Source: a virus (taxonomy: Duplodnaviria; Caudoviricetes). Taken from it: a stretch of DNA of 34,110 nt. Of the stretch, positions 3,670 to 29,107 are shown piece by piece. Both the position numbers and the translations under genes were made by a program. The notes under the pieces were generated by a model. The model did not search any database. It had not been told where the DNA came from and saw only the letters and a list, made by a program, of their open reading frames with translations. Where the stretch lies: positions 1-34,110 of IMG/VR virus record IMGVR_UViG_3300044641_006127; one strand, 5' to 3'. How positions within the stretch are numbered: the stretch's first letter is position 1; the number at the start of each line of letters is the position of its first letter.

Positions 3670-3678
3670 AATTATAAA

Positions 3679-3854
3679 ATGAAATCAATTATTATTTTTT
3701 TTAAATCGCTCTTCACCACTAAAAAAAGAGATTTTTTGTGAGACTGTAAAAAAAAGCGGCAAAAGCTAAAAGAGGAAGAAAGCCTAAATCTGGAAAAGAA
3801 ATAAGAAAAGAAACTAAGGTTTCTACTAAAAAATCTAAAAAGAGTGAAAATTAA
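3679..3854 (+). pseudogene. Small Lys-rich basic protein broken by two poly-A frameshifts
   Basis: MKSIIIFFKSLFTTKK / EIFCETVKK / AAKAKRGRKPKSGKEIRKETKVSTKKSKKSEN*; removing one A from each of A7 (3721-3727) and A8 (3748-3755) gives one 58-aa ORF. Confidence 0.5.
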
Positions 3855-4110
3855 AAGACTGACAGAATTTCTCGAGGAGACAAATCGATCTTTAGGATAC
3901 AGTGGTGGAGATGTTACAAAAATGCCAATTATAGGTAGTGTAATAACAAAACCTATTGGACCTTTTGGAGAAGGCTATTACGATATAGTTGAAGTGATTC
4001 AAGATCCACAGGGTAAAGAAATTTACATAGCTAATTCCTGGTATAAACCTGGAGTTCCCCAATTAATACATTCAGATTTAGTAAGACAGTTTAATCCATT
4101 ACTTTACTAA
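3844..4110 (+). CDS. Hypothetical protein (possible internal head protein)
   Basis: 88-aa ORF with GTG start; N-terminus MKIKRLTEFLEE. Confidence 0.7.
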   Translation: MKIKRLTEFLEETNRSLGYSGGDVTKMPIIGSVITKPIGPFGEGYYDIVEVIQDPQGKEIYIANSWYKPGVPQLIHSDLVRQFNPLLY

Positions 4111-4115
4111 TTTTT

Positions 4116-4144
4116 GGAACTTTATTTTCAGATAAATATATAAT
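4116..4144 (+). promoter_or_regulatory. Putative middle promoter GGAAC-N18-TATAAT, overlapping an AATATATA late-like box
   Basis: GGAACTT at 4116 and TATAAT at 4139. Confidence 0.6.
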
Positions 4145-4150
4145 AATAGA

Positions 4151-4222
4151 ACTAGAGGTTTCTAGTCACTTCCCGGTCAACAAGCCGTAGAGTTTTCAGA
4201 AATGGAAACAAAGGAAGGGGCC
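4151..4222 (+). ncRNA. Candidate structured 5' leader RNA (hairpin plus three-way junction)
   Basis: ACTAGA/TCTAGT hairpin; P1 CTTCC/GGAAG, P2 CGGT/GCCG, P3 GTTTTCA-GAAA-TGGAAAC; GC-richer than other intergenic DNA here. Confidence 0.45.
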
Positions 4223-4238
4223 AAATAAAATAATCTTT

Positions 4239-5036
4239 ATGTATTATTCAACGCCAAGCGTGATGTCGGCATGTACTGCTCACATTACAAAAAACAGAAA
4301 TAGATCTAAGATCTATGATGATTCCGTCTATCTAAAAGACGGTGAAAATTTCGAGATTGAGTTATTCAATCCAACAACGTCAAGGGTACTTGCAAAAATC
4401 ACTATCAACGGTAATTATATTTCTAATTCAGGAATTGTACTAAAACCAGGAGAGAGAGTTTATCTGGAAAGATTTATCGATTCAAACAACAAATTTGTTT
4501 TTGAAACGTATGAAGTAGAAGGATCAAATGAAGCTTTAAATGCCATCAGAAATAACGGAGGTGTAGAAGTTTCTTTCTATACCGAAATTATGACTTCCAC
4601 TTACTCATCATTTAATGATGGTTCTCTTACAATCAATTCTGGTAGTAGTACAGTATACGGATCCGGTACATTGTATGATACTTATAGCTATCCATTTGGA
4701 GGTACCACTGTTAATAATCTGTTTACCTCCAGCAGTTTAAGTGGTGTTTCAGGTTTATCTGGTCCAATAGGTTTAAACGGAGATGCAGGACCAGAGGGTA
4801 TTAAGGGTTCAATAGAAACTGGTAGAATTGAAAAAGGCGATTCCAGTAATCAATTATTTGAAACTGTAAATGGAAATTTTAGCACATTTACTACAAGTTC
4901 TATTACTATCAAATTACTTCCAGAGTCGCAAAAACCAGTTGAGGTTTCTACACTTAGAAACTACTGTACAAATTGTGGAACAAGAGCTAAGAAACAATCT
5001 TGGAAATTTTGTCCAAGCTGTGGATCAAAAATCTAA
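4239..5036 (+). CDS. Hypothetical protein: beta-rich N-terminal domain, Ser/Gly linker with short collagen-like GXY run, C-terminal zinc ribbon
   Basis: GVSGLSGPIGLNGDAGPEGIKGS; C-terminal CTNC...CPSC. Confidence 0.8.
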   Translation: MYYSTPSVMSACTAHITKNRNRSKIYDDSVYLKDGENFEIELFNPTTSRVLAKITINGNYISNSGIVLKPGERVYLERFIDSNNKFVFETYEVEGSNEALNAIRNNGGVEVSFYTEIMTSTYSSFNDGSLTINSGSSTVYGSGTLYDTYSYPFGGTTVNNLFTSSSLSGVSGLSGPIGLNGDAGPEGIKGSIETGRIEKGDSSNQLFETVNGNFSTFTTSSITIKLLPESQKPVEVSTLRNYCTNCGTRAKKQSWKFCPSCGSKI

Positions 5037-5049
5037 ACACCTACTGCAC

Positions 5050-5085
5050 AAAAAACCCAAGAGAGATCTTGGGTTTGTAGTTTTT
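5050..5085. terminator. Bidirectional intrinsic terminator between convergent genes
   Basis: AAACCCAAGA-GAGA-TCTTGGGTTT, flanked by an A-run and T-rich sequence. Confidence 0.8.
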
Positions 5086-6656: not shown

Positions 6657-6687
6657 GAAACTTTTCCAAGTTCTTTTACTATAAATA
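6657..6687 (+). promoter_or_regulatory. Putative middle promoter GAAAC-N18-TATAAA
   Basis: GAAACTT at 6657, TATAAATA at 6680, ATG at 6692. Confidence 0.6.
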
Positions 6688-23260: not shown

Positions 23261-23833
23261 ATGGCAGGATTACCACATTATACAAGTTCAAAAGCTTCAG
23301 TTAATAAATTTGAACCAGTTTTTCTTAATCAGTTTGAGGTGACTATTTCACCACCTGCTGGAGTGATATCAGTTCAAGGAAATCCTGGTAGCGGAAACAT
23401 CCTTTTAGAGCAAGTGACCAACATTTCGGGTTTGCAAGTGGATCAAAATGCTGGTGAGATCACTCAACAGTACAAATTTGCTAAAAGATACTATTCAGGA
23501 GCAGCTCCACAAAGAACAGGATTAGATGTTTCAATATCATTTGAAGTTAACCTTGATGATAATAATTCCATGTATGTTTTCAAAATACTTCGTCAATGGT
23601 CAGATTTAATTTATAATCCTATTACAGGAGCAATGGGACTTAAAAGGGATTATACAGGAAACATTTTAATTAACGTTTTCAATAAACAAGGAGATATTTT
23701 TAGAAAAATTAATCTTAGAGATTGTTTTCTTATGTCACCTATAACAGATATGGCATTAAACTATACCCAAGCATCTATTTATAAAATTGATGTACAATGG
23801 GCAGTAGATTATTTCGAAGACATATTCATATAA
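23261..23833 (+). CDS. Tail tube protein (gp19-like), copy 1
   Basis: Follows sheath; EPV..NQFEV, W..L.YNP.TG, FNK.G, DYFED. Confidence 0.85.
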   Translation: MAGLPHYTSSKASVNKFEPVFLNQFEVTISPPAGVISVQGNPGSGNILLEQVTNISGLQVDQNAGEITQQYKFAKRYYSGAAPQRTGLDVSISFEVNLDDNNSMYVFKILRQWSDLIYNPITGAMGLKRDYTGNILINVFNKQGDIFRKINLRDCFLMSPITDMALNYTQASIYKIDVQWAVDYFEDIFI

Positions 23834-23845
23834 ATATAAAACAAA

Positions 23846-24424
23846 ATGGCAGGATTACCACATTTTAGCTCATCAAAAGCAGCAGTTCAATTATACGAAC
23901 CAGTATATCTTAATCAATTCGAGGTTATTATTCAGCCTCCTGCGGGTGTATCTACACCACAAGGAAATGGAGGAAGATCTTTATTAGTAGAAAATGTACT
24001 TTCTATTTCGGGTTTATCTGTTGATAAAAACCCAGGAGTAATGGAACAAAGGTATAAATTTTCAAGAAGAAGATATGCAGGTGGAGCAGTTGATGATACT
24101 GGAGTAAAAATTAGAATTGATTTTGAAACTAACTTAGATGATAACAATAGCAACTATGTATTTAAAACTATGCGTGAGTGGTCTGATTTAATATATAATC
24201 CGTTAACAGGTGCTACTGGAATTAAATCAACATATGCAGGAGGAACTTATATACTTATATCAATATTCAATAAAGAAGGAGATGTATTTAGAAGAATAAA
24301 ACTAGTGAATTGCTTTCCTACAGATCAAATAAAATCAATGGATTTGGATTATAGTAACGGAACAACTCCTTATAAAATTGCACTTTCTTTTAGAGCTGAT
24401 TATTTTGAAGATATATTTAACTAA
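23846..24424 (+). CDS. Tail tube protein (gp19-like), copy 2
   Basis: Paralog of copy 1 (MAGLPH..SSKA, NLDDNNS, WSDLIYNP, DYFEDIF). Confidence 0.85.
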   Translation: MAGLPHFSSSKAAVQLYEPVYLNQFEVIIQPPAGVSTPQGNGGRSLLVENVLSISGLSVDKNPGVMEQRYKFSRRRYAGGAVDDTGVKIRIDFETNLDDNNSNYVFKTMREWSDLIYNPLTGATGIKSTYAGGTYILISIFNKEGDVFRRIKLVNCFPTDQIKSMDLDYSNGTTPYKIALSFRADYFEDIFN

Positions 24425-28486: not shown

Positions 28487-29107
28487 ATGGCAGTAAAAAA
28501 CATTCAAGAATTAGCGGAGAGCTTCATGAGAAGCTCATCAGAGAAAGATTTTGTAGAACTATACAAAAGAATCAAACCAGGATTATTAAATCATTGTAAA
28601 TCTATATTAATAGAACAAGAAGCTGCAGAAGATGCAGTTTCTAATACAATGGCTAAAATATGGACTAAGATCACACAGTATGATCCTATTAGAGGTAATT
28701 TTTCAACTTGGGTTTATAATATAGCTAGAAATGAATCTTTAGTTATTAAGAAATGCGAGGATCGATATATGCCTATCATACAAGAAATGGTAAGAAATTC
28801 AGATGACTCGGATGACCACGTAATAAAATCTAGTTCAAATATAGTTCAGGGGGATACCACATGCGATTATATAGCTATGGATAATGACGAGATGGAAGAT
28901 CTTTACTATAACGTCATAGAGAAGATGAACAATCTTCCTGAAATTTATAAAGACATCCTTTATGATAGGGAAATTCTAAGAATGAAATATCAAGAGATTG
29001 CAGATAAGCACGGAATGAAGAAAAGAGCTATAGCTACAAGAATCAGAAGAGCAAGACTAAAAGTCAGAGAAATGTTTCCTGGTGTTAATTTAACTTTTAA
29101 CGATTAA
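28487..29107 (+). CDS. ECF-type (sigma70 group 4) RNA polymerase sigma factor
   Basis: Region 2 AEDAV...KIW..YDP..GNFSTWVYNIARN; region 4 LPE.Y......YQEIA......TRIRRAR. Confidence 0.88.
   Translation: MAVKNIQELAESFMRSSSEKDFVELYKRIKPGLLNHCKSILIEQEAAEDAVSNTMAKIWTKITQYDPIRGNFSTWVYNIARNESLVIKKCEDRYMPIIQEMVRNSDDSDDHVIKSSSNIVQGDTTCDYIAMDNDEMEDLYYNVIEKMNNLPEIYKDILYDREILRMKYQEIADKHGMKKRAIATRIRRARLKVREMFPGVNLTFND

Follow-up and report, generated by a model that had tools for sequence, protein, structure and literature searches.

What does a leader of some 90 nt do in front of one gene of a large phage whose genes mostly follow one another with hardly a gap? The window analysed here, a whole contig of 34 kb, encodes a T4-like large phage with a terminase, tail sheath, RecA, DnaB and a sigma factor. 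Among its 38 gaps, 23 measure 25 nt or less; the gap between ORF 3844-4110 and ORF 4239-5036 measures 128 nt and ranks third longest, and its stretch from 4151 to 4222 reaches 47% GC, against 38% at most in any other gap. An earlier note, made from the letters alone, had remarked on this long, GC-rich leader, and the measurements confirm it. The note described a hairpin and a three-way junction with a competing pairing, recognised no known riboswitch or ribozyme and proposed a cis-acting switch or operator of the downstream gene. Rfam 15 likewise yields zero matches in the window at the gathering threshold and, at E values up to 10, only sub-threshold unrelated matches, none of them a ribozyme. 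Our analysis suggests that the Y-shaped leader is likely a switch that hides or frees the start site of the gene. The features on which the argument rests are these:

4116..4144, plus strand: promoter-like pair, GAACTTT at 4117-4123 and TATATAAT at 4137-4144; similar pairs precede the window genes at 6658 and 30355.
4151..4166, plus strand: 5' segment (X), predicted to fold into hairpin P0 (5 bp, loop 4156-4161) and containing the anti-start-site stretch 4154-4160.
4165..4221, plus strand: P1, 4169-4173 with 4213-4217, then an A.G mismatch and a P1 extension, 4165-4167 with 4219-4221; two-sided changes accompany the pairing at all pairs.
4174..4187, plus strand: P2 hairpin, 4174-4177 with 4184-4187, loop CAACAA; the third pair is G-C in 213 of 216 leaders and the loop varies in the family.
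4188..4191, plus strand: J2/3, UAGA (family U-N-G-A; putative 1b G and 2b A of a k-junction), with G in 214 of 216.
4192..4209, plus strand: P3 hairpin, 4192-4198 with 4203-4209, GAAA loop; the closing pair is purine-pyrimidine and the loop varies across the family.
4210..4212, plus strand: J3/1, AAA (family R-A-W; putative 2n and 1n), with a purine first in 213 of 216.
4223..4238, plus strand: A-rich initiation region; it can form 7 bp between 4232-4238 and 4154-4160, or a 5-bp pseudoknot between 4232-4236 and the P0 loop.
4239..5036, plus strand: gene of a phage family, 265 aa, with an Ig-like beta-sandwich split by a long disordered linker and a C-terminal zinc ribbon (predicted structure, pLDDT 76).
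5053..5085, plus strand: intrinsic terminator-like hairpin (hairpin 5053-5076) after the stop of the 4239-5036 gene.

The hairpin, P1, P2, UAGA, P3 with its GAAA loop and the AAA joint are thus all present where the earlier note had placed them. The junction leaves 0, 4 and 3 nt unpaired, and the window holds one copy of the motif, no further copies having been found.

The letters around the leader suggest a message of its own. Transcription would start at about 4148-4151, so that the mRNA would carry one gene behind a leader of about 90 nt and likely end at the terminator at 5053..5085. Of 216 leaders of the family, 193 have a -10-like word upstream and 104 have both promoter words, as counted with loose patterns in AT-rich DNA and without a chance control; a sigma-70 scan did not call the pair at 4116-4144. 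In the window the pair recurs at 4117, 6658 and 30355 as RAACTTT, some 13-16 nt, and TATAWA, and is perhaps read by the phage's own sigma factor (28487-29107). The terminator region, 5039-5085, has an A-run before the hairpin and a T-run after it, and the flanking genes converge on it; termination may therefore work in both directions. Initiation regions in the family are A-rich, with A at -3 in 155 of 216 leaders and SD-like words in 62, and Prevotella Lak phages carry homologs of the gene. These regions fit Bacteroidota-type initiation (PMC6847099); as to the host, this is no more than a lead.

Several other places in the window deserve a remark. The 174-nt gap at 3670-3843 looks by eye like a short gene, rich in lysine, whose frame is broken within an A-run, and resembles, again by eye, a small basic gene upstream in loci L001, L011 and L013. 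At 924-2816 an IMPDH/GMP-reductase-like gene stands beside a divergent thymidylate-synthase-like gene, a pair that possibly represents a DNA base-modification pathway. Two tail-tube-like genes, adjacent and alike, occupy 23261-24424.

Whether the leader structure is real was judged by comparison. Protein-led homolog scans supplied 46 loci, the best 80 of 344 and the best 80 of 368; parsing of all 399 loci, unsuccessful for 21 of them, gave 216 distinct leaders, and the parser demanded the U and last A of UNGA and the middle A of RAW and also favoured G-U. From the parsed set, 52 leaders hand-picked for diversity were aligned by sequence only. In this alignment pairing holds in 89% of cells, two-sided changes occur at 18 of 19 pairs, and the covariation score is 0.727, compared with 0.265 for shuffled alignments (0 of 500 as high) and at most 0.243 for slid ones; the structure proposed from a single sequence is thus conserved, with covariation, upstream of the homologs. 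Folding energy is modest on its own: the sense-strand core at 4164-4222 (z -2.42) beats 197 of 200 shuffles, three being as good, while z is -1.59 for 4145-4238 and +1.05, no better than chance, for the opposite strand. It is the decisive covariation that makes the leader structure real.

A covariance model matches 73 of the 80 metagenome homolog loci listed, some of which are in its seed; two of the seven misses are without upstream DNA and five have altered junctions. Altered junction letters are seen in L148, L154, L162, L163 and L201, which seem to retain three helices without UNGA or RAW. The model-fitted alignment is 94% paired, and P2 99%; RNAalifold, run on the sequence-only alignment, recovered P1 and P3 and missed P2, probably owing to a two-column shift of about eight rows in that region. 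Over the 216 leaders, P1 is 94-100% paired at pairs 1-5, 47% at position 6 and 89-99% at pairs 7-9, and the family consensus reads P1 (5 bp, mismatch, 3-4 bp), P2, U-N-G-A, P3, R-A-W. P3 closes with G-C in 174, A-U in 32 and G-U in 10. Helix letters are free to vary except for the G-C pair of P2, loops are variable, and what stays constant is the letters of the junction. Such constancy of unpaired letters, among helices that covary freely, points to a site of binding or to a set three-dimensional fold.

The motif scores 37-52 bits in all six full-length homologs of the genome collection and 40-48 bits in three huge phages, one of 735 kb; it is weaker (13-19 bits), with its position unchanged, in the Lak phages and three other huge phages, and it is retained in phages of 462-735 kb. 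In two gut-phage leaders (L456, 912-962; L457, 915-958), P2 appears by eye to be shrunk or missing while UUGA, P3 and GAA remain, a form that resembles a simple kink-turn. Pairs of the G-U type outnumber A-C in the junction helices by 674 to 14, an excess partly built in by the parser, which favours G-U; taken with the excess in the end pairing described below, it points to sense-strand RNA and not to DNA inverted repeats. In 4 of the 24 runs listed, RNA-library contigs span the leader or the gene in relatives; they were not counted as expression since they show neither strand, ends nor level.

The leader is also tied to a single gene. Three DNA-pattern scans made without reference to the protein found at least 196 loci. 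Among the matches listed, 155 have this gene downstream and five are full motifs at contig ends; the remaining 36 are without model support (at most 21.3 bits). The covariance model was run on these 41 and on 32 of the 155, and every complete motif among the matches listed stands before a 4239-type gene or at a contig end, although a divergent version before other genes could be missed by patterns built from known clades. Nor was there a motif near 13 loci having only weak or zinc-ribbon-only protein matches. Within the window and the pattern matches listed, the element is therefore found only with its gene, as an autogenous operator would be. Two homologs with a different C-terminal tail and no zinc ribbon retain the RNA, so the ribbon is not required for the link. 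Homologs L233 and L234, which lack the zinc ribbon and come from phages of 634-642 kb, retain the junction as well as the end pairing. In L207 and L210 the gene and leader lie on contigs of 254 kb and 425 kb whose bins carry the labels Bacteroidetes and Pacearchaeota; phage contigs have probably been binned here, so that the host cannot be read from the labels. At the level of sequence comparison, three helices, fixed junction letters, sense-strand action and a one-to-one link to the gene can be regarded as demonstrated.

The product of that gene offers few clues. It has 2304 homologs, and 3003 representatives at E values of at most 0.001, the weaker of which may be zinc-ribbon-only matches; a match to PF13240 (24.6 bits) falls just under the cut-off of 25. 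There is no informative PHROG, the Atlas clusters are unnamed, and a comparison with solved structures gave no relative, only generic Ig-like matches (best Z 6.4). Predicted viral structures gave 23 fold matches at E of at most 0.001 (3e-11 to 1e-3), uncharacterised proteins of giant viruses, nudiviruses, iridoviruses and baculoviruses and wsv390 of WSSV, the top match being labelled SHOCT-containing; ranavirus ICP-18 is just below the cut-off (E 0.002). These model-based matches suggest one fold family common to huge phages and eukaryotic large DNA viruses. The core does not belong to the known RNA-binding folds, nor is it basic: residues 11-117 contain 12 K/R and 15 D/E.

Where, then, does the switch lie? 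The earlier note had GTTTCTA (4158-4164) pair with TGGAAAC (4203-4209), opening both hairpin and P3. The letters do allow it, but the pairing has an ensemble probability of at most 0.01, is complete, with 7 of 7 pairs, in no more than 7 of 25 clade members, and is down to four pairs or fewer in 184 of the 191 other leaders. The proposal of a cis-regulatory switch or operator of the downstream gene survives in its broader part, through conservation, covariation and exclusive linkage, and fails in the pairing into P3. The 5' segment, 4151-4166, is the likelier switch.

In the window, P0 has a predicted probability of about 0.65 before the pre-AUG bases are made and about 0.3 after. A hairpin better than -1 kcal is found in the 5' segment of 23 of 35 group representatives, and P0 has no two-sided change among 20 clade rows. 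With the leader plus 9 nt, 4232-4238 pairs with 4154-4160 at a probability of about 0.55, and the 5-bp start-site pseudoknot, in which hairpin and pairing can coexist, is 94% paired, with two two-sided changes, in the 20 clade rows; the hairpin state and the pre-AUG-paired state of the window both come to -18.7 kcal. Pairing between the 5' segment and the pre-AUG bases spans 4-9 bp across the family, and cognate partners pair better than non-cognate ones, both over 35 groups (-6.75 vs -4.15 kcal, p 1e-5) and over 15 families (-4.96 vs -3.59, median p 0.004, worst 0.03). It beats 95% of shuffles in only 16 of 35 groups, exceeds a probability of 0.3 in only 19 of 32 representatives with the end pairing and 6 of 13 without, and is weak in clade members L142 and L150 and in Lak leaders. 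In the full-length window mRNA it drops to 0.01 without any end pairing, lost to non-specific partners.

In about three quarters of the relatives the same bases have a second partner in the 3' UTR. This clamp is better than -12 kcal in 149 of 194 complete loci (median 12 bp), stronger for cognate than non-cognate ends over 15 families (-14.2 vs -6.9, p at most 0.001) and better than all 200 shuffles in 29 of 35 groups; at the family level it is a covarying 5'/3' UTR helix like that of the hbs mRNA discussed below. It shares bases with the pre-AUG pairing in 137 of 138 cases, in 118 of 138 its 3' arm begins 9-16 nt beyond the stop codon's first base, and it ends near the base of P1. The sense duplex is better in 73 of the 138 clamps and the antisense in 36; G-U exceeds A-C by 47 to 9, scored without parser bias, which argues that the clamp acts as RNA and rules out terminal inverted repeats of a transposon at the DNA level. 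Pairing of the 5' segment with the pre-AUG bases and, in these relatives, with the 3' UTR through the same bases is thus supported statistically.

When the 3' end is added to 32 clamp-bearing representatives, the median predicted pre-AUG pairing falls from 0.51 to 0.0, with a drop above 0.2 in 22; in clamp-less mini-constructs it falls from 0.20 to 0.02. Since the pairing declines there too, and in the full-length window mRNA, the predicted switch is partly non-specific competition and the mini-construct test suggestive only. The clamp is absent in 45 of 194 loci, including the window clade and the Lak phages, and occurs in 1 of 32 of the window clade's family; the window itself has no complement to the 5' segment between stop and terminator, so that the hbs-type helix is absent here. 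Losses and gains cluster on the protein tree (12 changes vs 27 shuffled, on a quick tree with many open forks that gives no direction). Two other partners were considered. The best duplex that the 5' segment forms in the window, with an arm of the terminator (-13.8 kcal), would require the terminator itself (-17.7 kcal) to open; in 9 of 22 clade members over 20 of 200 shuffles do equally well, and the duplex, which is not conserved in the clade, was not accepted. A short match of the 5' segment to stop-codon bases was inconsistent.

The reading that we prefer, and to which we give about even credence, is that the leader acts as a translational operator and that its junction would be bound by a protein, probably the one that the gene encodes, as judged from the sequences and their linkage. 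The junction would fold as a k-junction and bend the leader, setting the 5' segment beside the start region, and pairing of the 5' segment with the pre-AUG bases would be the OFF state. In the window that state is marginal alone, about equal in energy to the hairpin, and could therefore be tipped by a ligand; a bound protein would stabilise it, giving negative feedback. In clamp-bearing clades the finished 3' end would strip away the 5' segment and turn full-length messages ON. The window clade would have only the local hairpin/pseudoknot toggle and, the window being without a clamp, the full-length-ON step does not apply here. Autogenous feedback fits the leader because of its one-to-one linkage with a single non-metabolic gene, and the phage proteins Aca2 and Aca1 are described as repressing translation through structured 5' UTRs (10.64898/2026.07.27.740549). 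Against an operator stand the core of the protein, neither a known RNA-binding fold nor basic, the shortness of the pre-AUG pairing and the five homologs with altered junction letters.

Other readings of the same evidence must be weighed. The junction might instead bind some different phage protein or a host factor, for instance a ribosomal protein or the 30S subunit, and the leader would then be a translation enhancer in a closed loop: the clamp would set the stop codon beside the leader and favour re-initiation on intact messages. We consider this unlikely, though the likeliest of the alternatives, given how regularly the clamp's 3' arm follows the stop codon and its end adjoins P1, that k-junctions occur in rRNA (PMC4005666), and that the junction lies 13-35 nt upstream of an AUG it does not cover. 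The loci without a clamp, the window clade and Lak phages among them, speak against it, and a general host factor might predict the motif before other genes, where none was found in the window or among the pattern matches listed. A broader and similarly unlikely reading would see a closed-loop mRNA device common to huge phages, from lake myoviruses to Lak megaphages, in which the k-junction leader binds protein or ribosome and the 5' segment toggles between start masking and the 3' clamp. The start codon would be masked on unfinished or cut transcripts; with the 3' end clamped beside the stop codon, only intact messages would be translated and ribosomes would recycle from stop to start. The window clade, its junction and start-site pseudoknot intact, would then serve as nature's own deletion control, and the regulated protein would come from a fold family common to giant and animal DNA viruses.

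Rather improbable is an mRNA stability element whose hairpin, junction and clamp guard against nucleases or set a processing site, with no ligand-controlled switch. The structure does begin at the putative 5' end of a message with its own promoter-like site and terminator, and the median clamp of 12 bp is close to the 14-bp pairing given for the hbs mRNA of Bacillus subtilis (PMC5737220); this reading leaves the fixed junction letters, the near-invariant G-C of P2 and the covarying pre-AUG pairing unexplained. We hold it improbable that the leader is a riboswitch sensing a metabolite or ion, its junction serving as aptamer and the pre-AUG pairing as expression platform. A junction with mutually exclusive pairings is riboswitch-like, and the TPP riboswitch is built on a k-junction (PMC4005666), but there are only about eight conserved positions, the P2 and P3 loops vary freely, the element is too small for a typical aptamer, and it is tied to one gene family without a metabolic domain and has no Rfam match. 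Least of all do we expect a self-cleaving ribozyme, or the hairpin-into-P3 switch of the earlier note, either of which would be very improbable. The UGA and RAA that flank P3 resemble the tandem G.A pairs of hammerhead stem II, and the 7-bp alternative pairing exists. The hammerhead core is CUGANGA and GAAA with a UH cleavage site; neither the window nor the consensus has a CUGANGA core or cleavage triplet, and the 0/4/3 junction offers only UNGA and RAW. Likenesses to twister and hammerhead both fail on conservation, and the P3 pairing is neither probable nor conserved.

We thus describe a structured, probably translational leader, with end pairing in about three quarters of its relatives, that is absent from Rfam 15. 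No description of the motif was found in the literature searched, but the alignments of Fremin 2023 may hold it; the main text of a 2026 language-model survey makes no mention of a zinc ribbon or three-way junction. The catalogue of Fremin 2023 (PMC10690425) lists DNAVirus_8941, a 76-nt candidate from tailed phages of the mammalian gut, six times upstream of zinc_ribbon_2 genes, with only 11 sequences and two covarying bases; the main text mentions neither zinc nor ribbon. Compared by catalogue description only, this candidate could be the Lak version of the motif. Few regulatory RNAs have been described for huge uncultured phages, and the retention of this one across proteins of about 35-85% identity, in lake and gut phages, marks a gene whose dose matters widely. 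Clamp-bearing and clamp-less clades are ready-made controls.

Among known folds the nearest is the k-junction (PMC4005666), in which a third helix interrupts the strand that faces a short loop, with G.A and A.(G/A) positions coming next. By sequence mapping P2 would be the C helix, P3 the NC helix and P1 the T helix; in secondary structure P1 lies between J3/1 and P2, with 0 nt between P1 and P2. The expected G1b.A1n and A2b.G/A2n letters are present, with G in 214 and a 2n purine in 213 of 216, the adenines being required by the parser and five homologs departing from them. The junction letters thus fit a candidate k-junction. Unlike the described examples, it stands by itself in a phage leader, measures about 57 nt and has no ligand-binding arms, and its 3b-3n pair is G-C or A-U where TPP riboswitches have C-G (PMC4005666); it would be a compact natural candidate outside rRNA and TPP riboswitches. 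As an operator, the leader resembles other structured leaders tied to one phage protein family. One is the T4 gene 32 operator, an autogenous translational operator; the 5'-UTR operators of Aca2 and Aca1 are another. Unlike in these systems, the present protein has no helix-turn-helix or known RNA-binding fold, the RNA is a three-way junction and not hairpins, and binding is putative.

The end pairing has precedents as well. In the hbs mRNA of B. subtilis, pairing between 5' and 3' UTR modulates RNase Y cleavage (PMC5737220), and the ends of one mRNA pair at long range over 12-14 bp, as in about three quarters of the motif's relatives; the motif's pairing, in contrast, is absent from the window clade and elsewhere competes with start-site pairing beside a conserved junction. 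The aapA/IsoA and hok/Sok toxin mRNAs (PMC6733600) share transient masking of the start in the nascent transcript followed by 5'-3' pairing, whereas no antisense RNA or small toxin is seen here. In those mRNAs the long-distance pairing is OFF until trimmed; the clamp is predicted to free the start. The leader family offers a testable case, in an mRNA of bacterial type, in which completion of the 3' end may turn translation on, where the toxin mRNAs follow the reverse logic.
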